Positions 1,591 to 42,269 of a stretch of 64,000 nt of DNA are shown one piece after another; position 1 is the stretch's first letter; each line of letters opens with the position of its first letter. Position numbers and translations under genes: made by a program. This stretch comes from Isurus oxyrinchus (lineage: Eukaryota). The notes beneath the pieces were generated by a model, which was given only the letters and a program-made list of their open reading frames with translations, was not told where the DNA came from and did no database searches. The stretch lies in NCBI GenBank assembly GCA_026770705.1, contig JANJGN010000021.1:98952001-99016000 (forward strand), read 5' to 3'.

Positions 1591-2384
1591 TTATTACCTC
1601 ATTGGCTGTGAAGGACTGTGGGGTTCCATGTTATCTACAGCATTGCCTATAATGGCCCCACACCTACCCGAGCCACTCACTTACTCCTTACATGTTTCCA
1701 CATACTTTTACCATTTGCCTCTAGATAACCCGAACTTTTTCTCTTCCTTAAGCTCTCAGTATAATCTTTCTGTTCCTTTCTTACTCACACTCTTTATCAG
1801 AACCTTCCACATTCCCACCTGTCCCTGTATCTGTGTTAACCACTTCCTCGAGTTTTTATACTGTGTCATGTCCCACATCTGGACATCAGTTACCTGGCTG
1901 CATAAGTGAAATTATTGCTCTTTTGGGGAATATTTCAGTCTTGTGTTGTACTAAACACTTCTTTTCAATACCTCCCACTGTTTCTCTGTATCTCCATCCA
2001 TGACAGCTCAGCTCAGGCTCACAGGTTCAGCTTAATTCCCATTCTTCAAAGTCTCAGCCTTTCTTCAGTTTAATACATGGTTGGTGTGATTTTTCTCCAC
2101 CTCAAACTTCATGTTAAACTCTAACATGCAATGTTCACTGTTTGCAAGTTGTTCCCTTACTGTCATGATTTAAATTAATTGTGGTCATTTCCTCGTTACT
2201 AAATCGAGTTCAGCCAGTTTCCTTGTCACTTTTAAAAATGCATTGAAAACTGTCCAGAAAACACTATAGAAATTCACTGTCTTCACAGTCTGTGGTCTTT
2301 GGCTTCTCTCAATCAATGTGAAAATTAAAATTGTCCATTTGATCCATTTTCCATTTGTTCCCAACTTCTCTGATCTCGGTATTA

Positions 2385-2822
2385 CACACATACGAATTTG
2401 GAGCAGGCGTAGGCCATTCAGCTCTTTTGCCTGCTCCGCCACTTGATAAGGTCATGGCTGATCTGACTGTAGCTCCAATTTCCTGTCTACCCCATATACT
2501 CTTTGACTCCCTTGTCAAGAAGCTATCTACCTCAGCATTCAATGACCCTGCCTCTACTGCTATCTGGTGAAGTGTTACAGACTCACGACCCTCTGAGAAA
2601 AAACTTTCTCATCATCTCAGTCCTAACTGGGAGAACCCTTATTTATAAATTGTGTCCCCTAGTTCTGGGCTCCCTCATAAGGGGAAACTTTGTCTCAGCA
2701 TCCACCCTGTCAAGTCCCCTCAGGATCTTATATTTCAGTAAGTTTACCTCTCATTCTTCTAAACTCCAACGGACACAGGCCCAACCTGTGCTCATAAGAC
2801 AACACCTTCATCCCAGGAATCA
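2385..2822 (-). mobile_element. CR1-clade LINE 3' fragment in intron 1 of gene A
   Basis: CR1 3' tail sequence; it interrupts intron sequence that is continuous in gene B (about 13600-13700). Confidence 0.75.
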
Positions 2823-3044
2823 GCCGATCGTGTTCCTACATCCTGCTGTCAGGGGAGCTGGACACAAATCCCATCAGAGTCTTACAGACTGTGCTGACTT
2901 CAATGATGTAAAATATCAGGCTGCCTGTATAACAGGGGGCTGATCAAACATCACCCATTTCAAACTCTCACCGAAAGATTCCAATTAACCCCAGAGAGAG
3001 AGAGAGAGTGAGAGTGAGAATGGAGGGCTGAATTCTGTACTTAC

Positions 3045-3096
3045 CGGGAGAGACCCAGGAAAAACACAGGGAGATGGAGAAAAGGATCAGCAACAT
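3045..3096 (-). CDS. MHC class I-like gene A, exon 1 (signal peptide MLLILFSISLCFSWVSP); remaining exons lie left of the window
   Basis: 52-nt ATG-to-GTAAGT phase-1 exon, identical to the leader exons at 13376 and 51581. Confidence 0.85.
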
Positions 3097-3159
3097 TCTG
3101 GGAATCCACTCTCCCTGTTCCAATCAGAGACTGGGAATGAAACACTCTGAGGGGGGAAA

Positions 3160-3345
3160 CTAATACTTTTTATAGACTGGGAAAAACAAAACAAAAACAA
3201 GCTTATCGAGGATCCATTTCACTATTTCAGTTGCACTTTGATCATTTCCTGATTATAGAACCAGAAGGTGAATGATTGGTTAGTTCCAGAAAAATACCCA
3301 ATTAACTGGATAAACAGTCACTCGTCACCTGTTACCAGGAGGATC
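3160..3345 (-). promoter_or_regulatory. Gene A promoter: X1/X2 box, Y box (ATTGG), second CCAAT, TATA
   Basis: Minus strand reads CCTGGTAACAGGTG-ACG...ATTGG (CCAAT at 3298-3302 on +); TATAAA near 3170; the block is conserved upstream of the B and C leaders. Confidence 0.7.
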
Positions 3346-3460: not shown

Positions 3461-5899
3461 CAAAAACAGAATTACCTGGAAAAACTCAGCAGGTCTGGCA
3501 GCATCGGCGGAGAAGAAAAGAGTTGACGTTTCGAGTCCTCATGACCCTTCGACAGAACTTGATTTCGAGTCCAAGAGTTGAAATATAAGCTGGTTTAAGG
3601 TGTGTGTGTGGGGGGGCGGAGAGAGAGAGAGAGACAGAGGTGCTTGTGTAGACAAACAAGCAGTGATAGAAGCAGATCATCAAAAGATGTCAGGGACAAT
3701 GGTACAAAAGAACACATAGTTGTTAAAGTTAAAGTTGGTGATATTATCTAAACGAATGTGCTAATTAAGAATGGATGGTAGGGCACTCAAGGTACAGCTC
3801 TAGTGGGGGTGGGGGGAGCATAAAAGATTTTAAAATATTTAAAAATAATGGAAATAGGTGGGAAAAGAAAAATCTATAAAATTTATAGGGAAAAAAAGGG
3901 GAAAAAAGGGGGGGAAACAGAAAGGGGGTGGGGATGGGGGAGGGAGCTCACGACCTAAAGTTATTGAATTCAATATTCAGACCGGAAGGCTGTAAGGTGC
4001 CTAGTCGGAAGATGAGGTGTTGTTCCTCCAGTTTGCGTTGGGCTTCACTGGAACAATGCAGTAAGCCAAGGACAGACATGTGGGCAAGAGAGCAGGGTGG
4101 AGTGTTAAAATGGCAAGCCACAGGGAGGTTTGGGTCATTCTTGCGGACAGACCGCAGGTGTTCTGCAAAGCGGTCGCCCAGTTTACGTTTGGTCTCTCCA
4201 ATGTAGAGGAAACCACATTGGGAGCAACGAATGCAGTAGACTAAGTTGGGGGAAATGCAAGTGAAATGCTGCTTCACTTGAAAGGAGTGTTTGGGCCCTT
4301 GGACGGTGAGGAGAGAGGAAGTGAAGGGGCAGGTGTTACATCTTTTGCATGGGCATGGGGTGGTGCCATAGGAGGGGGTTGAGGAGTAGGGGGTGATGGA
4401 GGAGTGGACCAGGGTGTCCCGGAGGGAGCGATCCCTACGGAATGCCGATAAGGGGGGTGAAGGGAAGATGTGTTTGGTGGTGGCATCATGCTGGAGTTGG
4501 CGGAAATGGCGGAGGATGATCCTTTGAATGCGGAGGCTGGTGGGGTGATAAGTGAGGACAAGGGGGACCCTATCATGTTTCTGGGAGGGAGGAGAAGGCG
4601 TGAGGGCGGATGCGTGGGAGATGGGCCGGACACGGTTGAGGGCCCTGTCAACGACCGTCGGTGGAAAACCTCGGTTAAGGAAGAAGGAGGACATGTCAGA
4701 GGAACCGTTTTTGAAGGTAGCATCATCGGAACAGATGCGACGAAGGCGAAGGAACTGGGAGAATGGGATGGAGTCCTTACAGGAAGCGGGGTGTGAGGAG
4801 CTGTAGTCAAGGTAGCTGTGGGAGTCGGTGGGTTTGTAATGGATATTGGTGGACAGTCTATCACCAGAGATTGAGACAGAGAGGTCAAGGAAGGGAAGGG
4901 AAGTGTCAGAGATGGACCACGTGAAAATGATGGAGGGGTGGAGATTGGAAGCAAAATTAATAAATTTTTCCAAGTCCCGACAAGAGCATGAAGCGGCACC
5001 GAAGTAATCATCGATGTACCGGAGAAAAAGTTGTGGAAGGGGGCCGGAGAAAAAGTTGTGGAAGGGGGCCGGGGTAGGACTGCAACAAGGAATGTTCCAC
5101 ATATCCCATAAAGAGACAGGCATAGCTGGGGCCCATGCGGGTACCCATAGCCACACCTTTTATTTGGAGAAAGTGAGAGGAGTTGAAGGAGAAATTGTTC
5201 AACGTGAGAACAAGTTCAGCCAGACGGAGGAGAGTAGTGGTGGATGGGGATTGTTCGGGCCTCTGTTCGAGGAAGAAGCTAAGGGCCCTCAGACCATCCT
5301 GGTGGGGGATGGAGGTGTAGAGGGATTGGACGTCCATGGTGAAGAGGAAGCGGTTGGAGCCAGGGAACTGGAAATTGTTGATGTGACGTAAGGTGTCAGA
5401 GGAATCACGGATGTAGGTGGGAAGGGACTGGACAAGGGGAGAGAGAAGGGAGTCAAGATAACGAGAAATGAGTTCTGTGGGGCAGGAGCAAGCTGAGACG
5501 ATCGGTCTACCAGGGCAGTTCTGTTTGTGGATTTTAGGTAGGAGATAGAAGCGGGCCGTCCGAGGTTGGGTGACTATCAGGTTGGAAGCTGTGGGAGGGA
5601 GATCCCCAGAGGAGATGAGGTCAGTGACAGTCCTGGAAACAATGGCTTGATGTTCAGTGGTGGGGTCATGGTCCAGGGAGAGGTAGGAGGAAGTGTCTGC
5701 GAGTTGACGCTCAGCCTCCGCGAGGTAGAGGTCAGTGCGCCAGACAACAACAGCACCACCCTTGTCAGCGGGTTTGATGACAATGTCAGGGTTGGATCTG
5801 AGAGAATGGAGTGCAGTAAGTTCAGAGAGAGACAGGTTAGAATGGGTGAGAGGAGCAGAGAAATTGAGACAACTAATGTCGCGCCGACAGTTCTCAATG
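3461..5899 (-). mobile_element. Penelope-like retroelement (RT + GIY-YIG, Neptune-type), 5'-truncated, inserted into an L2 3' end
   Basis: RT motifs DVQSLYTSI, GVAMGTRMGP and LRYIDD; Cys linker PCPCKRCNTC; GIY-YIG NLVYCIRC..LYIGET. A 25-bp duplication at 5019-5068 shifts the frame. 13-bp flanking repeat TTATAAAACAAAG at 3448-3460 and 5914-5926. Confidence 0.95.
3520..3560 (-). ncRNA. Minimal type I hammerhead ribozyme-like motif at the Penelope terminus (variant core)
   Basis: AGTT-CTGTCGA-A-GGGTC(ATGAG)GACTC-GAAA-CG-TC-AACT: stem I, core, stem II and minimal stem III; A6 is replaced by U. Confidence 0.6.
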
Positions 5900-5926
5900 T
5901 TATTAAAACAAAGTTATAAAACAAAG

Positions 5927-6270: not shown

Positions 6271-8462
6271 GTCATGTGCAGAGAGCCCAGTGTGGGGGTT
6301 CTGGAATGAGTCGTGTGCAGAGAATCTAGTGGACTCCCTCTGCTGACATTCCTCCTGTTAGTTTCATTTCCCCCTGTTGCAGGGTACTATTAACGATAGA
6401 ATTGATCTGCAGACACTTCTTGAGTGGAAACATTAAGTTTTACAATATACTGAGCAACAACTACACAACTTTCAACTCCAACTCCCTGCTACTCTCCCAT
6501 TGGTTATGACAGATCACATGATCTTCCTTAACACATCCTATTCTTAAAGGTACATTGCACACTAAATAAAATCATAACTACTACCTTCCTCCCCCTTTAA
6601 CTCACCTACACCTGTCATATCGACAAGTAGTTATTTTTCAAGCTAACATAATATTTACACTGGGTGAGGAATTTACAAGTTCAGTCTTTTAGTTGGTTTC
6701 TGGTACGTGTGGAACGTCACAGCTCCACAACTTCAGATTCTTTGTCAAGAACCTGCTTTTCCGGAGTTGCCTGAACATAAGGTGCTTCAGTGGGCACTTC
6801 CAGTTCTGTATCCTCAACTCTTACAGGAACATCAGGCATGTCAGTCCTGGGTTGAGTATTCTCAACAGGAAACACAGACCTGGTCATGATCACTGGTGGA
6901 ACCAAATCTTGGTGATTTGTTCTCTCACATAAATGGTCCACAGGTTTATGGATGATCCGGCCTTCCACCTCCACATGGTAAAATAGACATCCAGTCACCA
7001 CACTTATTTCACCCGGTAACCACTTTGGTCCCCCCCTGAAATTTTTCACATATACCGGTTCTCCCACGGTAAATTTCCTCTCGCGACCATGCCAGTCGTG
7101 TCTAGTTTTCTGGCTTCCTTGACTCCTTTCCACCTTCCCCTCTAAATTCAACATTATTAAGTTCAATCTCGTCCTGAGATAGCATTTCAACAATAACTCC
7201 ACAGGTGTGACACCTATTCTCATGTGAGGGGTGGCTCTGTAATGAAAATGCGAGTGTGCTAGCTTGGTTGCCAAGGAATCTCCAGTTAGCATTTTCACTC
7301 CTGCCTGGAACGTTTGAACCACCCTTGCAGCCAGTCAGTTTGAGGGAGGGTGGTACGTTGCAGTTTTCTCATAAGTGATACCGTTGAGGCTGATAAACCA
7401 TTGAAACTCAGCACTTGTAAATGCCGTGCCATTATTGGAAATGACTACTTCTGGTAGTCCATGAATGGAGATTCTCAATTGCAGCGCCCGATATTGGTGA
7501 CTTCATCTCATGTACATCCAACCATTTTGAATGGGCATCGACAATGAGCAGAAACATTTATCCCAAGGAAGGGCCAACGTAGTCAATATGTAACCGCACC
7601 CAAGATCTACCTGGCCACTCCCGGGGGTGTGACAGAGCTGTCACTGGCAACTTTTGCAGTTGCTGACATTGCACACAGTGCTTTACTAAACTCTCTATTT
7701 TGCCATCCATCCCAGGCCACCATAGACAGCTGCATGCTATGGTCTTCATTCGGGAAATTCCTGGATGGGCATTGCGTAGTTCAATTAAAAGTGGCTCCCT
7801 TCCCTTTGGAGAAATCATCACTCGTGGACCCTACAATAAGATGCCATCCTGGCTGGTTATTTCATGTCTTCTGTTGAAGTACGGTTTCATTTTGTCAGAT
7901 ATGGGCCCCTGTAATCAACCTTGTAGCACTTGTGGTGGCTCTGTACGTACTGGTGAAATTTCTTGACACCAATGATGATGGACAGTTCTTCTTTTTCAAT
8001 CTGCAAGTATCCCTTTTCCACTGTGGTGGGCGTTCTTGACACGTAACCGATGGGCCACTCCATGCTGTCATCCATCTGATGAGAGAGCACTGCTCCCACT
8101 CTGTAGGGAGGTGCGTCACATGTCAGCACCAATTCTTTTGTCTGGTTGTAATGCACTATTAAACTGGACAAGAGCAACAATTATTTCACCTATGAAAGCT
8201 TCTTTCTGGGCCACCTCCAAGACCAAGGTTGGTTCTTTTTGAGTAGAGAATGCAAGGAGGCCAGCACTGTAGACAAATTTGGTAAGTACCACCCATAATA
8301 GTTGATCATTCCTGGGAATGATTTGAGCTCTGAGGCATTCTTTGGTGCAGGTGCCTCTCTTATGGCTCTCACTTTCTCCTCAGCCAGGTGGAGGCCCCCT
8401 GAATCTACCCGGTGACCCAATTAGATTAACTCCCTCACTAGGAACTTGCACTTTTCTTTTCT

Positions 8463-9720
8463 CTAGAGAGGACTTTAACCTCGACCTTCTTTATGACTTC
8501 ACTACTGGCTAGACTTTGCTCAGATGCAGACTCAACATGTCTGAGCTCAGTGGCTGAGTCTCCCAAAATTTCATTATCTGTCTGCTTCTTGGAAAATTCA
8601 GCAACCTTTGCTTCCAAAGACTCTTTTTGGCTTCATTTAGCTGATTCTTCAGCCCTTCTGTCTCTTTTTTGTATTTGTTGGCTGCTTCCTGGACAATTGA
8701 ACATTGTTGTGTCTTCTCTGCTGACTCATCCTTCAGCTTGTTCAGAGAGATGCTGAATTCTCTCTGTTTCTCTTCATACTGTTCCAGAGGTACAACCTTT
8801 GACTTCACAGAATCACAGTGCAGAAGAGGCCCTTCGGCCCATCGAGTCTGCACCGACATATGAGAAACACCTGACCTCCCTACCTAATCCCATTTACCAG
8901 CACTTGGCCCATAGCCTTGAATGTTATGACGTGCCAAGTGCTCATCCAGGTACTTTTTAAAGGATGTGAGGCAACCCGCCTCCACCACCCTCCCAGGCAG
9001 CGCATTCCAGTCCGTCACCACCCTCTGGGTAAAAAAGATTTTCCTCACATCCCCCCGAAACCTCCTGCCCCTCACCTTGAACTTGTGTCCCCTCATGACT
9101 GACCCTTCAACTAAGAGGAACAGCTGCTCCCTATCCACCCTGTCGATGCCCCTCATAATCTTGTACACCTCGATCAGGTTGCCCCTCAGTCTTCTCTGCT
9201 CCAACGAAAACAATCCAAGTCTACCCGACCTCTCCCCATAACTTAAATGCTTCATCCCAGGCAACATCCTGGTGAATCTCCTCTGCACCCCCTCCAGTGC
9301 AATCTCATGCTTCCTATGATGTGGCGACCAGAACTGCACACAGTACTCCAGCTGTGGCCTCACCAAGGTTCTATACAACTCCAACATGATCTCCCTACTT
9401 TTGTAATCTATGCCTCGATTGATAAAGGCAAGTGTCCCATATGCCTTTTTCACCACCCCACTAACATGCCCCTCCACCTTCAGAGATCTTGATTGTTGAA
9501 GAAATCTTGTAGTGTGTGAAGGTCTTTCAACAGGTTTTCTTTCTCTCTGTGAAAGTTGCTCACTTCGTCTCAAACTCTGTCATCAAGCAGGGTCTCTTTG
9601 AGTTTCTTCTGCTGTTCTTCCAGGTTTTTGCTTAAGGCAGTCTGCATTTCTTCAGGTTGTTGACTCCTTATCCACTCCTTTTCCAAAACAGGGATGCTTC
9701 CAGCTTCTTTTTGGAATCCC
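8463..9720 (-). pseudogene. UACA: UACA-like coiled-coil gene fragment inside the Gypsy element, split by a CR1
   Basis: Translates as EKEWIRSQQPEEMQTALSKNLEE..DEVSNFHREKENLLKDLHTLQDFF / KSKVVPLEQYEEKQREFSISLNKLKDESAEKTQQCSIVQEAANKYKKETEGLK. This is collinear with the UACA coiled coil as I recall it; not searched. Confidence 0.65.
8806..9489 (-). mobile_element. CR1-clade LINE 3' fragment nested in the UACA-like segment
   Basis: ORF 8884-9573 contains LVRPQLEYCVQFWSP..WNALP; CACAGAAT tail repeats at 8806. Confidence 0.92.
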
Positions 9721-11189
9721 AGTGGTTAACCAAGGTTGATTTCCCTTAGCCAATTTTGCCCCAAAACACTTGGTCCTCTGTCTCTCAGTACCAACACTGG
9801 TAGCTTAGCCGATTGGCTTCCATAATAGACTGTTACTCTGCTTATGCCTTTTACTTTAATGTCTTCAGCCATATATGTCTTTAGTTTGGCATTTGTTTCT
9901 TCTAACTTAGTTGATGTTTACTATTATTCAATTATCTAAAGGTATGTCCCCCAGTTACAGTAGTGGAAACTCCCATGTCCACTTCTATTCTAACAGGTTT
10001 GCCATTTACTTTCACTGTATCATATGTCCATGCCATTTGAATTTTTTAAACAGATAATCGCTATAAGACTGATTGTTTCCATGTCTATTAAAATTATTCT
10101 TCAATTTTGCAGCTAAGTTATTTTTCTTTATTCTTCAACTAGCGGGGGCTGTTTCCTGCCTCTCAACAGAGTCTCACTCCTTCGCACCTCTTTCAGTTGA
10201 GGTTTCCTACCTGATGTGGAGAACAGTGCCGTTTTGTGTACTCTGTATTGCTTTTGAATCTCTTTCTGCACTTCCCATGGCCAGCACCATCTCTAGTGCT
10301 TTCTTGAAATCCAGATTCACTTTGGACAATAATCTTTTCTGAATAGTGTTCTCTTTCACATCATACACTAAATGATCTCTGAGCATGTTGTTCAGAGTCT
10401 CACACCGAGCTCACTGTCCCATTAGCTGCTTCAAATTTGCCACGAAGCATGAAATTGTCTCACCCAGGGCTCTATTTTGCAAATTAAACCTGAACATCTG
10501 CATCGTGACTGAGGGCTCGGATTGAAACTGACCCTTTACGAGGTCCACAAATTCATCAACGTTTTTCAAATCTGCGTCATTGGGTGCGGTCAAACTTTGA
10601 ATCAGTCTGTAGGCTTTGCTCCCAAAAGTACTCAAGAGGATTGCTTGCCTCTTCGCTTGCTTGAGAAAATAACATGAGGCGTTCTATGTATTGAGGGCAA
10701 TCACCTGTGGCTGGTTCAAAAGGATCAATTCTCCCAAATTGTGGCACTTTGAGAGGGAATAATTTCTTCAATTCTAACGGAGCTTGCTACTCACAATCAC
10801 TGGGCGAGGTACAGTGCTGATTTCTTTCTAACTTGATTTCTTCTGTTCAATCCTGTTATATCCTCATTGCCAGTTTGTTGTAGGTGGCTGAGTTGTACTA
10901 TTAATGATAGAGTTGATCTGCAGACACTTCTTGGGTAGAAATATTAAGTTTATTTGCAATATACTCAGTAGCAACAAGATGTGTGCTTTCAACTCAGTGT
11001 CTGTCTCTGCACTGACTTTGCCTGTGCTACTCTCCTATTGGTTACTACTGATCATGTGATCTTCCTTAATGAATATTATTCTCAAAGGTACATTGCACAC
11101 TCAATAAAACCACCATTACTACACCACCCCTCACTCGGATCCTGTTAGTTTGACTCCCTCCCCTCACTCTTCTCCTGTTACTTTGACTC

Positions 11190-12783
11190 TGTATCAATTA
11201 TCATATCTGTATCTGGCAAAATGAAACCGTACTTCAACAGAAGACATGAAATAACCAGCCAGGATGGCATCTTATTGTAGGGTCCACGAGTGATGATTTC
11301 TCCAAAGGGAAGGGAGCCACTTTTAATTGAACTACGCAATGCCCATCCAGGAATTTCCCGAATGAAGACCATAGCATGCAGCTGTCTATGGTGGCCTGGG
11401 ATGGATGGCAAAATAGAGAGTTTAGTAAAGCACTGTGTGCAATGTCAGCAACTGCAAAAGTTGCCAGTGACAGCTCTGTCACACCCCCGGGAGTGGCCAG
11501 GTAGATCTTGGGTGCGGTTACATATTGACTATGTTGGCCCTTCCTTGGGATAAATGTTTCTGCTCATTGTCGATGCCCATTCAAAATGGTTGGATGTACA
11601 TGAGATGAAGTCACCAATATCGGGCGCTGCAATTGAGAATCTCCATTCATGGACTACCAGAAGTAGTCATTTCCAATAATGGCATGGCATTTACAAGTGC
11701 TGAGTTTCAATGGTTTATCAGCCTCAACGGTATCACTTATGAGAAAACTGCAACATACCACCCTCCCTCAAACTGACTGGCCTCAAGGGTGGTTCAAACG
11801 TTCCAGGCAGGAGTGAAAATGCTAACTGGAGATTCCTTGGCAACCAAGCTAGCACACTCGCGTTTTCATTACAGAGCCACCCCTCACATGAGAATAGGTG
11901 TCACACCTGTGGAGTTATTGTTGAAATGCTGTCTCAGGACGAGATTGAGCTTAATAATGTTGAATTTAGAGGGGAAGGTGGAAAGGAGTCAAGGAAGCCA
12001 GAAAACTAGACACGACTGGCATAGTCGCGAGAGGAAATTTACCGTGGGAGAACTGGTATACGTGAAAAATTTCAGGGGGGGACCAAAGTGGTTACCGGGT
12101 GAAATAAGTGTGGTGACTGGATGTCTATTTTACCATGTGGAGGTGGAAGGCTGGATCATCCATAAACCTGTGGACCATTTATGTGAGAGAGACAAATCAC
12201 CAAGATTTGGTTCCACCAGTGATCATGACCAGGTCTGTGTTTCCTGTTGAGAATACTCAACCCAGGACTGACATGTCTGATGTTCTTGTAAGAGTTGAGG
12301 ATACAGAACTGCAAGTGCCCACCGAAACACCTGATGTTCAGGCAACTCCGGAAAAGGAGTTTCCTGACAAAGAATCTGAAGTTGTGGAGCTGTGACGTTC
12401 CACACGTACCAGAAATCACCTGAAAGACTGACCTTGTAAATTCCTCACCCAGTGTAAGTATTATGTTGTCTTGAAAAATATGTACTTGTAGATATGACAT
12501 GCGTAGTTGAGTTAAAGGGGGAGGAAGGTAGTAATTATGGTTTTATTTAGTGTGTAATATACCTTTAAGAATAATACTAGTTAAAGAAGATCACATGATC
12601 TGTAGTAAGCAATGGGAGAGTAGCAGGGGCCACCTCAGCTGTCAGTGCAGCGATAGAGTTGGAGTTGAAGGCACACGTGTAGTCACTACTGAGTATATTG
12701 TAAATAAATTTAATGTTCCCACCCAAGAAATATCTGCATTTCAACTCTATCGCTAATAGTTCCAACTCAGCCACCCTACAACA
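11190..12783 (+). mobile_element. Internally deleted Gypsy copy (5' LTR stub, integrase, 3' LTR), inverted relative to 6375-11123
   Basis: Integrase ORF 11290-11553 gives the same protein as 7558-7821; PPT and LTR at about 12527-12783; putative TSD GACTC/GACTA. Confidence 0.88.
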
Positions 12784-12788
12784 GACTA

Positions 12789-12903
12789 CCTCCCCTCACT
12801 CTCCTCCTGTTAGTTTGACTGCCTCCCCTCACTCTCCTCCTGTTAGTTTGACTGCCTCCCCTCACTCTCCTCCTGTTAGTTTGACTCCCTCCCCTCACTC
12901 CTC
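12789..12903 (+). repeat. 33-bp minisatellite (CCTCCCCTCACTCTCCTCCTGTTAGTTTGACTG)
   Basis: About 3.5 tandem copies; related units flank both Gypsy insertions (about 6350 and 11125-11189). Confidence 0.85.
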
Positions 12904-13139
12904 TGCACAGTGTGTTTCCCTATGGTTTCTCTGTGGGTCACTAAATTAAACGGAGTGTCTGACTGTAACTTTTGTGGTATGATTCCAGTCTGTCCAGAGC
13001 CAGTGTAACAGTTCCTGGGGGAGTGGGACCCATGTCAATGTGTTTTCTGTGAGTGGGTGGGGGACCCCAGTGTCTCTTCTCTTTACACTGAAGCTGCTGG
13101 GCGAGCCCTCTTCAATCTCACTCTTAGCCTGTCTCACTT

Positions 13140-13375
13140 TGATCCACCTGGCTGACAAATAATTGATTATTTATTTAATGGGTATTTTTCTAAGATTAAC
13201 CAATCATTCACCCTCCGATTTTGAGTTCAGGAAATGATCAAACTTCAAGTTAAACAGTCAAATGAAGTCTCTTGGCTTGTTGTTTATTTTGTTGTTTTTT
13301 CCCCAGTTTATAAACAGTATTAGTTTCCCCCTCAGAGTGTTTCATTGATTGGAACAGGGAGAGTGGATTCCCAGA
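13140..13375 (+). promoter_or_regulatory. Gene B promoter with degraded X/Y module; CCAAT and TATA retained
   Basis: Homologous to the A and C promoters; the Y position reads AATGG and the X region is scrambled; TATAAA near 13310. Confidence 0.55.
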
Positions 13376-14520
13376 ATGTTGCTGATCCTTTTCTCCATCT
13401 CCCTGTGTTTTTCCTGGGTCTCTCCCGGTAAGTACAGAATTCAGCCCTCCATTCTCACTCTCACTCTCTCTCTCTCTCTCTCTGGGGTTAATTGGAATCT
13501 TTTGGTGAGAGTTTGAAATGGGTGATGTTTGATCAGCCGCCTGTTATACAGCCAGTCTGATATTTTACACCATTGAAGTCAGCACAGTCTGTAACACTCT
13601 GATGGGATTTGTGTCCAACTCTCCTGACAGCAGGATGTAGAAACCCCGAGAGCAGAGAAGTTTGGAACAAATGGAAAATGGTTCAAATGGGCACTTCTAA
13701 TTTTCACATCGATTGGGAGAAGCAAAACAGTTTCATCACTCCTGGTCTAAAGCCTTCAAAACACTATGGAGAGGAGAAGGATAATCCATGTTTAACCCAC
13801 CCCAGGATCAGCTGTGATGCCCTCATGGTTGAATAGGCCAGGTTATCTCAGACCACCAACATCCTCCTGACCCTGTATAAAGGGGTGATTAAAAAGCTCT
13901 GTGAGGGACAGTGGAGATCCTGCTCTGGATTGTCCATCACCCTGTTTGACAGTCAGACTGTTCATACAATGACTGCCCCCCCCACTATGCTATCACACTT
14001 CATCCTCCCAAAGATTCCTCTTTCTCTTCATTTCAATCTGGAATTCACTCACACCACATGTTTCCTGGTTATGATGATAAACAACAGACCTGCCCTCAGG
14101 TTATCCTGAATTCCTCACTCCAGATGTTCTCTGGTCAGGAGGGTCTGCTCAATATCTCTCTCCAGATGTTCTCTTGTTCCAGGTTAGTGATAGACTGGGT
14201 GTGTCACAAGTTACTGTTCCAGGTTAGTGATCTTCTGTTTAACACTCTAACCCCGGATTGTGCCCCAGACTCTCCCACGTGTTCACACTTACTCCATCGG
14301 GTGTCTGAGTGACTCTGATTCCTGGTTTGCTCCCTGTTCTGAGAGGCTGCAGCATCTACTTCTGACCCAGTTTAATCAGATTCTGTTTATAATATCAAAC
14401 AGGATTCTGTATTGTGATAAAGTGGTGGATTATTGGAGATTGTCCCTGTGTGGATGGGCCTCACTTTAATCAGGTGGCAGTGTGTGGAAATGTTTATTAA
14501 CCTGTCCCTTTAATTGTTTA

Positions 14521-15030: not shown

Positions 15031-15185
15031 TTGGTTTTGATTAAAGTGTCACTTTAACTGTTTGCTTCACAGACACTAACTCACACACAATGATATACAT
15101 TGTAACCTCCGGTAAGGAAGATTTTCCTGAGGTCACTGTTGCTGCGATAGTCAGTGGAGTCCAAACAGGTCATTATGACAGTGAT

Positions 15186-15420
15186 AAAAACAAAAAAACT
15201 GCGGATGCTGGAAATCCAAAACAAAAACAGAATTACCTGGACAAACTCAGCAGGTCTGGCAGCATCGGCGGAGAAGAAAAGAGTTGATGTTTCGAGTCCT
15301 CATGACCCTTCTACAGAACTGAACCCTTCTGTTGAAGGGTCATGAGGACTCAAAACGTCAACTCTTTTCTTCTCCACCAATGCTGCCAGACCTGCTGAGT
15401 TTGTCCAGGTAATTCTGTTT
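15186..15420. mobile_element. Fold-back element made of two inverted Penelope termini, inserted in B alpha1
   Basis: Inverted arms AAAACAGAATTACCTGGACAAACTCAGCAGG... and ...CCTGCTGAGTTTGTCCAGGTAATTCTGTTT; 16-bp TSD TCATTATGACAGTGAT at 15170-15185 and 15421-15436. Confidence 0.9.
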
Positions 15421-15629
15421 TCATTATGACAGTGATGTCCATCAGTGCGACCCCAGGCAGCAGTTCATGGCTGAATATTTCAGTGTGAAACACTGGGACT
15501 ATGTCTCAGATCTGATAAGCTCACATTCACACCTGGCAAAGGAGAATCTGAATACAATACTGAAGATGACAAACCAGACATCTGGTAAGATCACAATGTA
15601 GAAACTCATTGTTGATTGTCCCCCATTAT

Positions 15630-16432
15630 ACCCAGTGCCACTCCACTCAGCCCATCCCCCAGCTCCGACCCCTGCCTCACTCCAGTCAATCCGTCTGCCA
15701 GTGCTGACCCATGGGTCACTCCACTCAGCCCATCCCCCAGCTCTGACCCCTGCCTCACTCCAATCAGTCCGTCTGCCAGTGCTGACCCATGGGTCACTCC
15801 ACTCAGTCCATCTCCCAGCTACGACACCTGGGTCACTCCAATCAGTCCACCTCCCAGCACTGACCCCTGGGTCACTCCAATCAGTCCATCTCCCAGCAGT
15901 GACCCTGGGTCACTCCATTCAGTCCATCTCCCAGCAGTGACCCTGGGTCACTCCATTCAGTCCATCTCCCAGCACTGACCCCTGGGTCACTCCAATCAGT
16001 CCATCTCCCAGCACTGATTCCTGGGTCACTCCACTCAGTCCATCTCCAACATTGACCCCTGGGTCACTCCAATCAGTCCATCTCCCAGCAGTGACCCTGG
16101 GTCACTCCATTCAGTCCATCTCCCAGCACTGACCCCTGGGTCACTCCAATCAGTCCATCTCCCAACACTGACTCCTGGGTCACTCCATTCAGTCCATCTC
16201 CCAGCTCTGACCCCTGGGTCACTCCACTCAGTCCATCTCCCGGCTCTTACCCCTGGGCACTCCACTCAGTCCATCTCCCGGCACTGACCCCTGGGTCACT
16301 CCACTCAGCCTGTCTCCCAACACTGGCACCTGGGTCACTCCACCCAGCCCATCTCCCAGCACTGACCCTGGGTCACTCCAGTCAGTCCATCTCCCAACCC
16401 TCACCCTGGGACACTCCACTCAGTCCATCTCA
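15630..16432 (+). repeat. 38-39-bp minisatellite (CAGCACTGACCCCTGGGTCACTCCACTCAGTCCATCTCC) in B intron 2
   Basis: About 20 tandem copies; the same repeat occurs in D intron 2 at 61828-62035. Confidence 0.9.
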
Positions 16433-17294
16433 CAGATCAGACTGTGACTCTATTCCCCCATTTCTATCTGATACTAGATCCCCTTTTCCCTCTGATCAGG
16501 CAGTTTGTGACTGCCTATTAACTATTGATTCTTGATCTCTATTTGGTCACTGACAGGAATTCACACTCTTCAATGGATTTGGTCTGTTGATGTCGCTGAA
16601 GACGACTCCATTAAGAAATCGATGCGAGTTGGATTTGATGGAAAGGACTTTATTAGTTTAGAGCCAGGCAGAATGAGATGGGTCACAACCAATCACATTA
16701 CAGTGAAGACTAAAGAGAAATGGGATTCTGATAAATCCTGGAACAAATACTGGCAAACCTATCTTCAGGAAGTATATGTTCAGCATTTGAAGAAACATTT
16801 TTGAGCTGGAAAGAAATATTTCAAAAGGAAAGGTATTTATCAGTTTGGATCCCATGTTCTGATCTAACTTCACTGGTTTATGAAAGCGTTCTCCCCTTCC
16901 ATTCAGTGTCTGTCTATTGTTTGTGTTTTCACCCTTTCCCATTACAGTTCAGCCTGAAGTGTTCATCTCCAGAAGTGACCCCAATAGTCAGTACAAGCCG
17001 CTCACTCTCTCCTGCCTGGCTACTGGATTTTAACCTGTAGACATTGAGGTGAGCTGGCTAAGGAATGGAGAAGTAATGTCTGAGACACTATCTTCGGGGG
17101 TTCGACCCAACCACGATGGGACCCATCAGATCCAGAAAGAGATTGAAATAAATGCTGGGGATGAGGATCAATACTCCTGTCAAATTGAACACAGCAGCCT
17201 GGCAGAGACCCAGCACTCTCAGTGGGGTAAGGAACAGTACTGTGTGTATGTGTGTGTTTATGTGTGTGCTTCTTGAGCCTGTTCCACCATTCAA

Positions 17295-27096: not shown

Positions 27097-27216
27097 CTCT
27101 GCTTTGCCATTTCCAAATGATTGTTCCGATTATCCCAAATATAGCAAGCAGTGCTGCGATCACGAGTCCAATTATAATCCCAAGTTGTGAGTGTCCCACA
27201 CCGTTTTCTGGGATTT
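27097..27216 (-). CDS. Gene C connecting peptide/transmembrane exon
   Basis: 120 nt with AG/GT borders; EIPENGVGHSQLGIIIGLVIAALLAIFGIIGTIIWKWQSR. Confidence 0.9.
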
Positions 27217-27659
27217 CTGAAACACATTGGAATAATACCAGGATTATATGTCTGTTATGGGTTCATTCCCAGTGGATTAATCAGGGACAATTTTAACCAA
27301 AACATCTGATTGGGAATTGATGGGATTAATGAGGACATGATGGTATTGGTTGAATATACCTTCTGCAAGTCCATCTGGACCAGATCCACAGACACTCCCT
27401 TATCCACCATCTTACTGAGCTCCTCATGAAATTCAATGAGATGAGTCCCATTCACAAATCCATCCTGTCTCTCTTTGATCAGCTGATCCTTGTCTAAACG
27501 TCTGGAACTCAATCTCTGGACATTTGTGGAGACTTTTTTGGAGCTGGATTCTCTCATTTATTTCCTGTGTTGACCATGGTGGGTTCACTGCAGTAGTTTA
27601 GGACTAAGTCCTGCTGTTGGATTGTACCGAGTACTTCTTCTGAACTGGTTATTGTCCTG

Positions 27660-28210
27660 GTCTTACTGCATTTGAACATGGACTGCTTCAGTATCTGAGG
27701 GTTCTTGAATGGTGCTAAACATTGGGTAATCTTCAGTGAACATCCCCACTTCTGACCTTATGAAGGAAGGGAATTAAAGAAGCAGCTGCAGATGGCTGGG
27801 CCGAGGACCTATCCTGGGGGATCTTCTGCAATGATGTCCTGGAGCTGAGATGACTGACCTCCAACAACCATCGTCCTTTCCGCTCGATATGACCCCAACT
27901 AGTGGAGAGTTTTCCCCCTGATTCCCATTGACTCCAGTTTTGCTAGGGCTCCTTGATGCTACACTGGGTCAAATGTTGCCTTGATGTCAAGAGCAGTCAC
28001 TCTTACCTCACCTCTTGAGTTCTGCTCCTTTGTGAATGTTTGGACTGATGCTGTAATGAGGTCAGGATCAGAGTTCCCCTGATGAAACCCAAACTGAGCA
28101 TCTGTCAGCAGGTTTTTGCTGTATAACTGCCACTTGATAGCACTGTCAAAACCCCTTCCATCACGTTGCTGATGTTTGAGAGCAGACCAATAGGGCAGTA
28201 ATTGGCTGGA
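27660..28210 (-). mobile_element. LINE RT fragment (same family as 21330-23248)
   Basis: Nucleotide similarity to 22130-22680. Confidence 0.75.
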
Positions 28211-30546
28211 GTGGAATCGTCCGGCAAGGTTTTGTTACAAGCCTTGGTTTTCCATTGTAGAGTGAGGAGAGAGAGAAGCTTGTGAAATACCTCCCTTATA
28301 GCAACAGTGCCTTGCAGTAATATTACTGGATGTTTTATAGATTAAAAATCTATAAAGAACTGTTGCCTGGAAAAGGATGTTTATTTGAAAGTCCAGCTAA
28401 GTAGGAATCTTTTGGGAAATGCTGGAAGACTAAATTTAGCTGTGTAACTGAAATCTTTTGTGTTTAAGTTTTCTTTTCTTTTGTTTATAAATGTTTTAAT
28501 TTAATATTTAAAATCTCCAAAAGCAGCAGTGGGATCTTTACCTCTGACTTCAGTACATACACCTTCTCATAATAAATACAAGTTGCAAATCATTGTGCTG
28601 GCTTGACCAAGTTTGCCTTTGGGATTTGGTCAGTCCGGCAATTACCAGCTGCCCTATCAGAGCATCTTCTTCGTAAATAACTGAGATCTTGGATTTCTTC
28701 AAGTCAAATAAAAGTTACTGCTCTCTACCGAGATGGTAACAAAGTTAGTGAGCGGCCTGGGTTTTTTACAACAATCCTGTTGCTTCATGGTTATCATACT
28801 AAAACTAGCTTTTAATTCCATATTTATTAAATAAATTTAAATCCCTGCAACTGCTGTGGTGGGATTTGAACTTGTGTTCCCCAGAGCATTAGCCTGGGCC
28901 TTTGGATTACTTAGGCCTGTAACATCTGGAACAAGACAGTGTAGCCTTAAAATTAGAGCGAGGTCATTTTGGAGCAGAAGCAGAAAGCACTTCTTTACAA
29001 AAAGGGTAGTGGAAATCTGGAACTCTCTCCCTAAATCTGTGGATGCCGGGAGAATAGGGGGGATGGGGAGGTGTCAATTGAAATGATCAATACTGAGATG
29101 GGGAGATTTCTGTCGAGAAGGGCAGCAAACAGATATGGAACAATAATGCGTAATGATATCACACATCCACACAAACATAGACACACTTACGGACAGGAGA
29201 GAGATAGGAAAACTGAACACATTTCCTCTTCCCACCTGTCCACAAACAGTAGGTGTTTTAAATTAGTTAGAACTTATTAGGTGGCGTCGTTTCCCAATCC
29301 CCTGGATTTTCTGATCCAATTTACCAACAATCTGCAGCAAACTCACATTATGACTAACTCAGAAGGTTAGTTTAATTCACATTCAGGAAGAAACCCAGGG
29401 AAGGAGTGTCCACAACTGCCCACTCCAAACACACACACACATGCAGGTGCAATCACACACACGAACCACACACACCTGCACATATACAAACACGTGCACA
29501 AACACACACACGCGTGCATACACACACACACACACATACACACACCATACAAACACACGCATACATACACATGCACAGTAAATGGAGGATAGAAGATAAG
29601 ATTTTTATAGTACAAGAACCACTGAAATTAATATTAGTTCACGTGATTTCCAGAGCCCATGGGGCAAAGTCCAGAGGGCGTTTCCTTTGTGGGTTCAGTT
29701 CTGATTAGTTTCTGGTTTGAGATAACAAGACATAAATCCTTGAAATAAACAATGCTGCAGCACTCTGGGCTTCTGCGCTTACACCGCTTGGCAGGCATCG
29801 ATCAGAGATTTTTAAAATCAAGCAGGCTTTGGGGGCTGGAGAGGTGGTAACTGACTGGAATCCTGTCCAGTGGATGTTAAACAGCAGCCTGAGGATTTCT
29901 CAGTTCTCAAAGAAATATATGGATTTCAAAATGGTCCCTCAAGTCATGTGACCTTCTTCCTCCTCAATGACTTGAAAAGGGACTTTTACCCAGTGCCAGG
30001 AACTGGCTTTGATTTCAGGACTGATTATGACCCAGTCCTTAGTTATTGAAAGGTTTACCATCCCTATTGAGGGTCTGGTGTTGGGAAGCCATTGTCTAAG
30101 CAGACTCACTGACTCCACTAGCAAGGTCAGCTTAGCAGACACAAAAACCATCTTTGTTCCCCCTTTGAAATGGGCCTGGACAGTCTCAGGTGTGACATGA
30201 GTGCGTCAGCAACTCTGTAAGCTCGACGAGTTCTAATGTGTGAGTCTCCTGGACTTTTGGGATTACAAGGGGTCTGTACAATGAGATATGAGATTCCACA
30301 GCTGAGAAAATAATTCTTTTGTTCTTGTAACTTCTGGGGGAGGGGAGTTGTTGCGGGGTAGCTCCCAGACAAAGAGGCAATACTGTGGTCATGTGACCGA
30401 GAGCAGCCATCGTTTATTAGTTCATCAGAAAGTCCATTTTTTTAAAACTGTAAAAGAATAAAGTTCTGGATTTCTTTTCATGTCCCAGAGACCCAGCACA
30501 CCCACCCACCCACACACCCACACACACACACACTACAGTTCCTTAC

Positions 30547-30825
30547 CCCACTGATAGAGCTTGCTCTCTGCCACGCTGCTGTGTTCAATTTGACAGGAGT
30601 ATTGATCCTCATCCCCAGCATTTATTTCAATCTCTTTCTGGATCTGATGGGTCCCATCGTGGTTGGGTCGAACCCCCGAAGATAGTGTCTCAGACATTAC
30701 CTCTCCATTCCTTAGCCAGCTCACCTCGATGTCTACAGGATAAAACCCAGTAACCAGGCAGGAGAGAGTGAGCGGCTTGTACTGACTATTGGGGTCACTT
30801 CTGGAGATGAACACTTCAGGCTGAA
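30547..30825 (-). CDS. Gene C alpha3 exon (Ig C1-set)
   Basis: 279 nt, open: VQPEVFIS..LSCLVTGFYPVDIEVSW..RPNHDGTHQ..YSCQIEHSS. Confidence 0.95.
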
Positions 30826-30942
30826 CTGTAATGGGAAAGGGTGAAAACACAAACAATAGACAGACACTGAATGGAATGGGAGAACACTTTCATAGACCAG
30901 TGAAGTTAGATCAGAACATGGGAACAAAACTAAAGTAAATAC

Positions 30943-31217
30943 CTCTTCTTCTGAGATATTCCTTTCCAACTTGTAAATATTTCTTTAAGAGGCCAATGAG
31001 TTCTTCTTCCAACTGCCATTCCCAATGCTTGTTCCAGGATTCATCCAAATTCCATTTCTCTTTTATCTTCACTGCATTGGGATTAGTTGCGACCATCTCA
31101 TTCTGTCTGGCTCTAAACTAATATAGTCGTTCCCATCAAATCCAAACCGCATCAATCTCTGAACAGAGCCATCTTCAGTGACGTTGACAGTCCTTATCCA
31201 TTGTAGGATGTGAAATC
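30943..31217 (-). CDS. Gene C alpha2 exon with a 1-bp deletion at about 31093
   Basis: 275 nt versus 276 in B; GFHILQWIRTVNVTEDGSVQRLMRFGFDGNDYISLEPDRMRW / VATNPNAVKIKEKW..LLKKYLQVGKEYLRRR. Confidence 0.9.
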
Positions 31218-31529
31218 CTGTCAGTAACAAAACAGAAATCAGCAATCAATAATTCACTGCTTGTTAGAAACGCCTTCTTGCAATTCAGACAGGACAATTT
31301 CAGTGGAACCCACTTGGTAAGGAAATTGACAGGGCAATGTGCAACACTGGTCCAACATCCCGTTAGATTTTACACTAAATTGAAGCTAGCAGAGAACAAC
31401 ATGGAATGTGGTGCAAATCCAGCTTTCCACTCAGTCCGTTAGCTTGATGGTCTAATGCGTTATGTTAAAATTACTGCAGTTTTGGGAAATAATCACACAG
31501 GAGAGAGTTACAAACTGATTCTGGCCACA

Positions 31530-34500
31530 GTCTGATCAAAGGGAAAGGGGATCTAGTATCAGAAAGGAATGAGGGATTAGAGTCACAGTCTGATCTGAGT
31601 GGAGAAGGGATCTAGAATCAGATAGAAATGGGAGATAAGAGTAACAGTCTGATCAGAGAGGAAAGGAGATCTAGTATCAGATAGGAATGGGGGATTAGAG
31701 TCACAGACTGATCGGGGGAAAGGGTATCTAGTATCAGGTGGAAATGGGGGAATAGAGTCACAGTCTGATCAGAGGGGAAAGCGGATCTAGTACCAGATAG
31801 AAATGGGAGATTAGAGCCACAGTCTGATCAGAGGGGAAAGGGAAACTAGTATCAGATAGAAGTGGCGGATTAGAGTGACAGTCTGATCAGAGGGGAATGG
31901 GGATCTAGTATCAGATAGAAATGGGGGATTAGACTCACAGACTGATCGGAGGGGCGAAGGGATATAGTATCAGATAGAAATGGAGGATTAAAATCACAGA
32001 TCGATCAGAGGGGAAATGAGACCTAGTATCAGATAGAAGTGGGGGATTAGAGTCACAGACAGATCAGTGGGGAAAGGGGATCTAGTCGCGGAAAGGAATG
32101 GGGGATTAGAGTCACAGTCTGATCAGAGGGGAGGCGGGATCTAATATCAAATAGAAATGGGGGGTTAGAGTCACAGTCTGATCAGAGGAGAAAGCAGATC
32201 TAGTATCAGACAGAAATGGGGGATTAGAGTCACAGTCTGATCAGAGGAGAAAGGGTATCTAGTATCAGATAGAAATGGGGGATTAGAGTCACAGTCTGAT
32301 CAGAGGAGAAAGGGTATTTAGTATCATAAAGGAATGGGGGATTAGAGTCAAAGTCTGATCAGAGGGGAAAGGGGATCTAGTATCAGATAGAAATGGGGGA
32401 TTAGAGTAACAGTCTGATCAGAGAGGAAAGGAGATCTAGTATCAGATAGAAATGGGGGATTAGAGTCACAGTCTGATCAGAGGGGAATGGGGATCTAGTA
32501 TCAGACAGAAATGGGGGATTACAGTCACAGTCTGTTCAAAGGGGAAAGGGGATCTAGTATCAGAAAGGAATTGGGTTTTGAGACAAAATCTGATCAGAGG
32601 GGTAAAGGGATTTACTATCGGATAGAAATGGGGGGTTAGAGCCACAGCGTGTTCAGAGGGGAAAGGGTAACTTGTATCAAATAGAGATGGGGGATTAGAG
32701 TTATAGTATGATCACAGGGGAAAGGTGATCTACTATCAGATAGTAGTGGGGGATTAGAGTCAGTGACAAATCAGAGGGGAAAGGAGATCTAGTATCGATA
32801 GAGAAGGGGTTTAGAGTCACAGTCTGATCAGAGGGGAAGGGGATCTAGTATCAGAAAGGAATGAGGGATTAGAGTCATAGTCTGATCTGAGTGGAGAAGG
32901 GATCTAGTATCAGATAGAACTGGGAGATTAGAGTGACAGTCTGATCAGAGAGGAAAGGAGATCTAGTATCAGATAGAAATGGGGGATTAGAGTCACAGTC
33001 TGACCAGAGGAGAATGGGTATCTAGTATCAGAAAGGAATGGGGGATTAGAGTCAAAGTCTGATCAGAGGAGAAAGGGGATCTAGTTTCAGATAGAAAAGG
33101 GGATTAGAGTCACAGTCAGGTCAGAGGCGAAAGGTAATCATGTCAGATAGGAATGGGGGATTAGATTCACAGTCTAATCAGAGGGGAAAGGAGATCTAGT
33201 ATAAGATAGAAATGGGAGATTAGAGTCACAGTCTGATCAGAGGGGAAAGGGGATCTAATAGCTGATAGAAATGGGGGATTAGGTTCAGTGTCTGATTAGA
33301 CGGGAAAGGGGATCAAGTATCAGATAATAATGAGGGATTATAGTCACAGTCTGAGCAGAGGGCAAAGGGGATCTAGTATCATAGAAATGGGGGATTAGTG
33401 ACACAGTCTGATCAGAGTGGAAAGGGGATCTAATATCAGAGATAAATGGGGGATTAGAGTCAATGTCTTATTAGAGGGTCAAGGCGATCTTGTATCAGAT
33501 AGTAGTGGGGGATTAGAGTCACAGTGTGATCAGTGGGGAAAGGGCATCGAGTATCAGATAGTAATGGGGGATTAGAGTCACAGTGTGATCAGAGGGCAAA
33601 GGTGATCTAGTATCAGATAGAAATGGGGCATTAGAGTCACAGTTTGATCAGAGGGAAAAGGGGATCTAGTATCAGATAAAAACGGGGACTGGAGTCACAG
33701 TCTGATCAGAGTTTGAAGGGGATCTAATATCAAATGGAAATGGGGGATTCGAATAACAGTCTAATCAGAGGGTAAAAGGGGTCTAGTTTCAGATAGAAAT
33801 GGTGGATTCGAGTCACAGTCAGTTCAGAGTGGAAAGAGGATCTAGTATCAGATAGGAATGGGGGATTAGAATCAGTCTGATCAGAGGGGATGGGGGGTCT
33901 AGTATCAGACAGAAATGGTGGGTGAGAGTCACAGCCTGATCTGAGGGGAAAGGGGATCTAGTATTAGATAGAAATGGGGGATTAGAGTCAGTGTCTGATC
34001 AGAGGGGAAAGGGGATCTAGGTATCAGAAAGGAATGGGGGATTAGAGTCACAGTCTGATCAGAGGGCAAAAGGGATCTGTTATCAGATAGAAATGGGGCA
34101 TTAGAGTCACAGTTTGATTAGAGGGGAAAGGGGATCTAGTATCAGATAGAAATGGGGGATTGGAATCACAGTCTGAGCAGAGTGGAAAGGGGATCTAATA
34201 TCAGATAGAAATGGGGGATTTGAGTAACAGTCTAATCAGAGGGGAAAGGGGGTCTAGTTTCCGATAAAAATGGGAGATTAGTGTCAAAGACAGTTCAGAG
34301 TGGAAAGGTGATCTAGTATCAGATAGGAATGGGTGATTAGAATTAGTCTGATCAGAGGGGAAGGGGGGTCTAGTATCAGATAGAAATGGTGGGTGAGAGT
34401 CACAGCCTGATCTGAGGGGAAAGGGGATCTAATATTAGATAGAAATGGGGGATTAGAGTCAATGTCTGATCAGAGGGCAAAGGGAATCTAGTATCAGATA

Positions 34501-36545: not shown

Positions 36546-36789
36546 AGGGGTCATGTTTGCGATTGGTACAAGGACAGGGGGAGGGATTTGGTCATTGGGG
36601 TTAAAAGAAAACTATGGTGATCACGTGAGAAAGAGATGCATATCACAGAATCACAGAATCACGCAGTGCAGAAGAGGCCCTTCGGCCCATCGTGTTTGCA
36701 CCGACACATGAGAACACCTGACTTACCTACGTAATATAGGGTTAGTCTCTGTCTCCAAGTAGTGCTCAGGCTATTCAGACAAATAAGAG

Positions 36790-37440: not shown

Positions 37441-37454
37441 GAAGATGCTTGACT

Positions 37455-42100: not shown

Positions 42101-42269
42101 CTGTTAAAGAAGCAAATGAAGGGATTGGTTAATAAGGAATCAATGATATTTTCCAAACAGCACCAACTGATCAAGATGAATGACACCCACATAGTGACAA
42201 TCTCCTGTAGTCCCTCTCTTCATTTTAACACCAGGATCCTGTCTGAAATGAGAAACTAGGCTTCTTTTT

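Follow-up and report, generated by a model that had tools for sequence, protein, structure and literature searches.

Do captured host fragments serve the retroelement that carries them, or do they ride along? This question, testable from sequence alone, is raised by a window of 64,000 nt of the Isurus oxyrinchus genome (contig JANJGN010000021.1, positions 98,952,001 to 99,016,000; all coordinates below are those of this whole stretch). On its minus strand (11123-6375) we found a Gypsy element with the order LTR, gag, protease, insert, end of the reverse transcriptase (RT), RNase H, integrase, polypurine tract and LTR. The protease end GPSVLGQNWLREINL (9776-9732, minus strand) is followed by a coiled-coil coding stretch and then by the last RT motif (EKCKF at 8456 and LGHRVD at 8420, minus strand). 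The parts of the element, with the family names explained further below, are:

10876..11123, minus strand: 5' LTR (TG...CA) with a PBS-like TGG at ~10872; net divergence ~0.01 from the RT-bearing family P
10100..10790, minus strand: gag, broken (PNMA, E 0.01)
9804..10020, minus strand: protease of the family-P type (net A-vs-P divergence ~0)
9690..9803, minus strand: protease C-terminal end and RT linker of another Gypsy lineage, start of the cassette (net A-vs-P 0.11-0.33; common to D1-D3)
9497..9689, minus strand: UACA coiled coil, part 1 (from aa 909 of P0004), in frame with the protease (tblastn; frame count 39/53)
~8807..9496, minus strand: 3' end of a 5'-truncated CR1, private to the window copy (absent at the site in other loci)
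8645..8806, minus strand: UACA coiled coil, up to aa 1026 (comparison with host UACA)
8545..8644, minus strand: UACA aa ~1173-1210, joined via the 450-nt deletion of subfamily B-ii (alignment with B-ii)
8461..8544, minus strand: third segment of family B (~85 nt) with a Lys/Arg-rich end (alignment with B-ii; 11-nt microhomology to the RT end)
7933..8460, minus strand: RT C-terminal end and RNase H of the family-P type, out of frame with the cassette (RT_RNaseH_2, 1e-19; 40/49 copies out of frame)
6717..7830, minus strand: integrase (zinc finger, core, C-terminal part), broken (domain comparison; net divergence from P ~0)
6375..6585, minus strand: 3' LTR, with the polypurine tract (6586-6598) ahead of it (LTR comparison)

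The cassette frame stops at 8438-8440. Relative to other copies, the window copy is without ~180 bp near 10018-10034 (gag side), and ~320 bp are absent at 7933; the flanks GGTGG and GGGGG may represent a 5-bp target duplication. Two LTRs with TG...CA ends, a PBS-like site and a polypurine tract are present as in Gypsy/Ty3 elements, and the domain order gag, protease, RT, RNase H, integrase holds, with the RT reduced to its C-terminal end. As the RT catalytic core is missing (~980 bp of the RT-bearing relative L134 are without counterpart in the window), the element does not qualify as autonomous; nor does it qualify as retroviral by pol or env, since the integrase reaches the polypurine tract with no env frame between and the domains are of the Gypsy type. 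The window element is one decayed copy of a non-autonomous Gypsy family, here called family A, whose RT core is replaced by the insert.

The element sits within a 33-bp minisatellite (6332-6374, 11123-11194 and 12755-12919). Its 3' half has an inverted duplication (6484-7901 versus 11210-12628), as has a leader exon (2298-3305 versus 13174-13727); the identity of 99% over 981 nt, 92% beside these and 100% over 134 nt at the exon suggests gene conversion. MHC class I-like genes and pseudogenes lie on both strands (3028-3123, 13349-13444, 15051-17225, 27098-42101, 51513-51608 and 61322-63999), and the Gypsy element is located 3 kb upstream of a leader exon on the same strand. At 3948-5913 we observed a LINE-like RT fragment with an internal duplication and a GIY-YIG-like end, a motif that we take to be of the Penelope type. 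A Carcharodon gene model (P0001) has two MHC class I-like units, with gag and cassette pieces from the orthologous insertion spliced in between. It matches the window at 10680-10540, 8778-8641 and 3123-3028, and 46 of 46 residues equal the window copy, against a median of 80% (best 89%) for the same residues in 57 other copies. The model is probably a prediction artefact; as it carries the orthologous insertion, the insertion dates to the ancestor common to both sharks.

The insert and its match to UACA

A sequence-only reading of the window had proposed that a UACA-like coiled coil replaces most of the RT, and this is confirmed by tblastn, by further copies and by DNA identity to the host exon. 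With the shark UACA-like protein P0002 as query, tblastn aligned window 9686-9489 to aa 877-943 (45%, E 1e-11) and window 8814-8611 to aa 938-1005 (50%, E 1e-14). Significant matches to a cellular coiled-coil gene were thus obtained, and aa 877-1005 of P0002 span both halves of the insert in register, as the same reading had stated. Copies free of the CR1 are 52-54% identical to shark UACA over 128 aa, and family A copies share 68-79% DNA identity with the host UACA exon (G000:C25), a single 2.7-kb exon with AG and GT edges that encodes aa 408-1316 and is 99% identical to P0004 of Carcharodon carcharias. The best UACA scores came from shark proteins; those of rays were lower and those of birds and lizards lowest. 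Searching the protein collection with 8509-8823 gave two matches among 77 candidates, i.e. the Carcharodon model with the same insertion and Scyliorhinus UACA-like P0002. Homolog searches of proteins returned nothing named RAI14 or ANKRD24, and for the insert Pfam gave only coiled-coil matches below threshold.

In fact, the insert is made up of three pieces: UACA 909-1026, UACA ~1173-1210 and the third segment of ~85 nt. A coiled-coil insert of about 570 bp had been claimed; the coiled coil stands, with the size corrected to ~540 nt (9689-8461 minus the CR1), and the range given for its 5' side has to be shortened, as 9690-9735 is Gypsy linker and not UACA. That a CR1 split the insert later holds as well, since the CR1 (~8807-9496) is found at the site in none of 58 other loci.

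Element families that carry the insert

A first look at the genome gave ~3,000 DNA candidates with each insert half (these are not copy numbers), of which 40 each were scored; scored A matches are 85-91% identical, the window itself excepted. From 60 loci, two belonging to the window and one duplicate copy were subtracted (57 distinct among 58 other loci), and all 57 distinct loci match shark UACA. Exact matches to a 20-mer that crosses the 5' joint number 237, with 0 for the reversed control. Hundreds of copies therefore share the same joints, unlike a single insertion with a target duplication of its own. This 20-mer is present in 18/57 score-picked and 2/15 pattern-picked A copies; family A comprises at least 237 copies and, scaled by the 20-mer share, probably 750-1,800. 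All examined copies are decayed, with a pairwise divergence of ~12-18%. A window-like RT end with RNase H is kept in 19 of the 57 A loci and absent in 38; A copies lacking RNase H are not taken as mere deletion derivatives of the window type, since they keep a D-like tail, with the RNase H joined later. Protease and insert share one frame in 39/53 A copies, at a modal distance of 99 nt. In 40/49 the RT end lies in another frame than the cassette, and in 27/47 the gag-to-protease frame is shifted, for which we assume a gag-pol frameshift of the programmed type. Contigs of four runs, which are only guessed to be RNA and thus no proof of transcription, cover 29-30 of 30 bins at 80% likeness, CR1-free forms included.

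A DNA pattern for the RT motif matched the genome 324 times. Among the 30 matches examined, the RT-bearing loci L125, L134 and L135 share 78-88% identity with the window; in place of the insert of A they have ~980 bp. No annotated full-length pol was found among 1,077 candidates of an integrase search. Net divergence between A and this RT-bearing family P is ~0 in LTR, gag, RT end, RNase H and integrase, and besides the insert they differ in one block only (9803-9690, protease end and linker; net 0.11-0.33). We infer that P is the backbone of A and likely its helper; indeed, LTR and cis sequences are common to A and the RT-bearing family, as in a non-autonomous element with a helper. Family P itself is abundant, and 39 of its 40 best-scoring places match the RT query in pieces only, without the same 300 bp, which L134 keeps (L168-L197).

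An older set of elements, family B, measures 4.2-4.5 kb and has its own LTRs (L073-L092, L093-L122, L153-L167). It contains a gag N-terminal piece (presumably so, from its motif), UACA aa ~694-1210, the third segment, a second coiled coil and an integrase-like tail. The UACA piece of B has 77-86% DNA identity with the host and shows nested deletions, among them, in subfamily B-ii, a 450-nt deletion joining aa 1026 to ~1173 (29 of 30 copies, picked by similarity to one B-ii copy). The insert of A is colinear with B-ii across this deletion and on into the non-UACA third segment. The second coiled coil, which we first took from its look to be TPR, scored 34.2 bits with PF25481 (cut-off 27), and PF07926 placed one host gene on C16 (TPR, G000:C16:74253904-74271208; L201-L203). 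Nine host TPR exon pieces, spread over 17 kb upstream of the PF07926 match, are contiguous in B; five of the joints coincide with AG/GT exon edges, and two with microhomology deletions. Thus B captured a spliced TPR mRNA, as the loss of introns shows. The mRNA capture therefore lies one step before the window element and concerns TPR; the UACA part of B derives from one exon. Both TPR deletions recur in protein P0030 of Scyliorhinus torazame, which places B before the split between catsharks and mackerel sharks, a split of Jurassic age.

Some B-type frames are 250-320 codons long. Atlas and PDB searches with P0030 returned generic coiled coils only, and folding a B fragment from its sequence alone yielded long helices (pLDDT 67, pTM 0.40) with no hint of a function. 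For the third segment, the best atlas score (0.89) went to an unnamed entry, Pfam gave none over the cut-off, 150 genome matches (49-73%) included no evident host exon, and there was no match in 200 kb around TPR or at the UACA exon locus. Database protein searches found no intact chimeric protein.

A degenerate pattern for the 9803-9690 block gave 635 matches, of which 70 were examined (30 first-listed, 40 by codon variants): UACA lies downstream by a strict test in 54, RT-like sequence in one and neither in 15, several of which show the cassette in translation. Clustering gave the groups D1 (13 loci), D2 (20), D3 (9), A' (6) and A (15), with three loci placed by hand and 7 left out. D1 and D2 are ~3-kb elements with LTRs, and direct repeats of LTR size surround the cassette in 16 of 30 six-kb loci of D1, D2, D3 and A'. 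The cassette (protease end, linker, UACA, basic tail and stop) passed from B to at least three Gypsy backbones, which are only 67-77% alike and each match another RT-bearing family. Identity in the protease region is 83-87% within groups and 67-80% between them (D2 versus D3, 80%); the RT-bearing locus L123 is 85% identical to D1, L137 and L149 87-88% to D2 and 82-84% to D3, and L125 and L134 86% to A. Given the likeness of D2 and D3, part of this ladder may be one helper lineage changing over time. In D1, D2, D3 and A the frame ends a median of 25-30 residues past the same motif and with 36-44% Lys/Arg, and the downstream joints differ (small samples of 7, 9, 2 and 31 copies, respectively); B-ii also has 30% Lys/Arg in the tail region.

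The tree of the cassette has the order host, B, D1, D2, D3, A/A' (support of key branches 100/97, 96/85, 100/99 and 100/100), D1 and D2 not being single clades (2 changes each). Net third-position distance from the host rises accordingly, from 0.15 (B) through 0.22 (D1), 0.27 (D2) and 0.33 (D3) to 0.37 (A). The linker of D1-D3 is longer, and compared with them A has lost 63 nt at its joint without a change of frame (modal distance 447 versus 384). The 5' joint of A is hence a later deletion and not the original capture joint; the original 5' joint of D1 is too diverged for microsimilarity to be read. At the 3' joint an 11-nt A-rich sequence occurs in both B and the RT end of P. The sequence-only reading had proposed joints of the template-switch type and a non-passive capture, with which the multi-copy family, the shared joints and the 11-nt microhomology agree. 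Host sequence does replace an internal part of the frame here, taken not from a host mRNA by this element but from the donor B via D. Judged from these comparisons, the insert of the window element came second-hand from older LTR elements. The second option of the earlier reading, a segment from a UACA-bearing mobile family, is thereby supported by the shared B deletion, the joint and the tree.

Coding constraint on the borrowed frame

Selection was gauged from net distances between samples of natural copies (between minus within groups) rather than from a branch model, over 93-107 codons that BLAST placed on the host exon and with samples of modest size. Between A and B, net distances at codon positions 1, 2 and 3 are 0.070, 0.066 and 0.225 (93 codons); the difference between positions 3 and 2 has a CI of 0.084-0.24 and holds without CpG codons. 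Within A the values are 0.120, 0.114 and 0.144. Decay after insertion is nearly flat across codon positions, although within-family decay also has a small third-position excess (0.03). Three-point arithmetic assigns nearly all of the A-B divergence to the B-to-A branch, with 0.21 for position 3 and 0.05 for position 2. Net dS between A and B is 0.52 and dN 0.11, a ratio of 0.21 (CI 0.10-0.42) compared to a baseline of 0.48 (0.37-0.62) for decaying copies. A base-stratified permutation found an excess at degenerate sites for A versus B (P 0.0005), but no significant one within A (0.09) or within B (0.70). If the frame were neutral, 4.5-5.2 fixed stops would be expected over 107 codons. None is present in the majority of copies, the commonest shared stop occurring in 16/46. 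Five family-level deletions (450, 102, 126, 282 and 63 nt), those in the coiled coil among them, are all in frame. Single steps are weaker, with intervals that include zero for D2-D3 and A'-A, and B versus host in the shared part (dN/dS 0.58, CI 0.29-1.33) is indistinguishable from decay. Given the coding constraint and the lack of a fixed stop, the elements likely made the captured protein and drew a benefit from it. Such a codon bias is not seen in neutral passengers, which points to a product that affected the fate of its own RNA; oligomerising Gag-protease and nuclear targeting are candidate roles for it.

Taken together, we consider it probable that in the family to which this decayed copy belongs, a non-autonomous Gypsy of high copy number, the RT was replaced, second-hand, by a protease-fused UACA cassette, and that this cassette was under purifying selection, was likely translated and gave a replication advantage. 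The most serious rival, possible though rather doubtful in our view, accepts the same history but holds that all selection did was to preserve a frame that was open, soluble and harmless, free of early stops and of a product that is toxic or blocks assembly. The coiled coil would then have brought no benefit of its own and spread as the passenger of a good LTR and good packaging signals. Large in-frame deletions were tolerated repeatedly, protein identity to the host went down to ~52%, and P too was amplified with a 300-bp RT deletion and no cassette, all of which would suit a passenger. A dN/dS of 0.21 with a strong synonymous excess within base classes would not, and neither would the transport of the cassette with its own protease end across several backbones nor the upkeep of the basic tail and the stop position. 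Purifying selection might instead have been that of the host, if a B- or D-type copy had been domesticated to serve the shark and was re-mobilised repeatedly by new Gypsy families. Domestication is common, only samples of each family were examined and B-type frames of 250-320 codons exist; nevertheless this is improbable, since all steps of the ladder are themselves dispersed families of many copies, LTR-size direct repeats surround the cassette in the 16 of 30 loci mentioned above, no intact source of high identity occurs among 57 UACA matches (the C25 gene excepted) and database searches revealed no intact chimeric protein.

The main idea of the sequence-only reading, that this Gypsy itself captured UACA mRNA directly by template switching, has to be given up as very improbable. 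The 3' microhomology and the partial replacement of pol do fit the model of PMC5131818, but the 450-nt deletion and the non-UACA 3' segment are common to B, the protease-linker block is foreign, and A nests in the tree inside D3, D2, D1 and B. That a processed pseudogene fragment inserted passively into one Gypsy copy, or that the match is due to chance, is hardly conceivable: coiled coils easily give weak matches and Pfam stayed below threshold, but the joints are common to hundreds of copies, the RT is replaced rather than interrupted and DNA identity to the host exon is 68-79%. Nor does the insert have the make-up of a LINE-made processed pseudogene (single insertion, poly(A), own target duplication).

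For the preferred reading, a cassette moved second-hand and kept by selection, the history runs as follows. The older LTR family B holds the gag N-terminal piece, UACA aa ~694-1210, the third segment, spliced TPR and the integrase tail. Part of B-ii was then joined behind a Gypsy protease and linker, forming the cassette, as the shared deletions and the tree show. From there, backbone identities trace its move to successive RT-bearing families, i.e. D1, D2/D3, A' and then A on P, with one crossover placed inside the protease and the other at the 11-nt microhomology in the RT end. The backbones would have changed by template switching between co-packaged RNAs, as in PMC5131818. For its copying, each recombinant would have relied in trans on the helper that had supplied its LTR, gag and integrase, and its product, presumably translated via gag-pol frameshift as Gag-protease-coiled coil-basic tail, may have mattered in cis, as the codon-position bias suggests.

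Retroelement proteases must dimerise and Gag-Pol must co-assemble. We tentatively propose that the coiled coil stands in for RT-integrase as an oligomerising C-terminal arm, so that Gag-protease assembles and the protease dimerises. The defective RNA would then make particles and need only the RT and integrase of a helper, while the tail might bind RNA or act as a nuclear-import signal or importin contact. In the same tentative spirit, UACA may have been domesticated by a parasite: a functional protease-UACA-basic tail module could have let RT-less elements out-compete or exploit their helpers and persisted throughout shark evolution as a satellite cassette recombining onto each new active Gypsy family, with an ancestor that had UACA and TPR, possibly as a means of getting to the nuclear pore or through it. 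Both proteins have links to the nuclear envelope, TPR being part of the pore basket, and nuclear-pore targeting is a tempting idea for family B.

Known systems and implications

Maize Bs1 is an LTR element with fragments of several host genes in a chimeric frame, reported to be transcribed and translated (PMC13317346, PMC5131818). With UACA, TPR and the third segment in one LTR element, family B has several host-gene fragments too and appears to be a close animal analogue. Bs1 is low-copy, whereas the shark families have hundreds to thousands of dispersed copies, and a sub-cassette has moved to other LTR families. Crocodilian endogenous retroviruses captured nectin3 (CrocERV31, replacing env) and KIT-ligand (CrocERV29), with purifying selection on the captured frames (PMC4299795). 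Like the shark case, they are vertebrate LTR elements with captured host sequence under purifying selection; these captures number 6 and 9 copies, comprise near whole host frames and belong to one ERV lineage each. In the shark, by contrast, a fragment is fused to the protease in the place of the RT of a Gypsy, the constraint falls on between-family branches and the backbones are swapped.

For LTR-mediated retroposition in metazoans, Tan et al. (2016) described replacement of an internal frame part, joint microsimilarity with a median of 6 bp, multi-gene chimeras and further non-autonomous rounds (PMC5131818). Their cases are young retrocopies, and the available text of PMC5131818 does not report long-term coding constraint or transfer among LTR families. 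The shark element works like such retroposition (PMC5131818) and like Bs1 but fails as a direct mRNA retrocopy. In bdelloid rotifer retroelements, the same types of an extra ORF3 occur on diverse lineages (PMC5408684). There, enzymatic or env-like frames are added to gag-pol, whereas in the shark a structural host coiled coil replaces the RT. Acutely transforming retroviruses have gag-onc fusions and are defective and helper-dependent, with the host fragment selected in cis; the shark element differs from them in that it is a germ-line retrotransposon with no env seen and no known growth-promoting activity. A literature search at the level of titles and abstracts, with repeat libraries (Repbase, Dfam) and supplements outside its scope, found no report of shark retrotransposon families bearing UACA or TPR.

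Most known cases of gene capture by LTR elements are young or low in copy number. In the present vertebrate genome a whole dated series has been kept, from spliced mRNA capture through host-gene fusion and in-frame trimming to the transfer of a cassette among Gypsy families, and constraint at the level of the protein was measured along the branches of the elements rather than after insertion. For annotation this means that thousands of UACA- and TPR-like shark fragments are element copies, which leak into gene models such as P0001 and P0030. The host-gene capture by B, with the deletions of P0030, predates the split of shark orders, and the UACA piece sits in hundreds of copies on several families of jumping genes, where it was likely a borrowed part that aided the spread of crippled elements.
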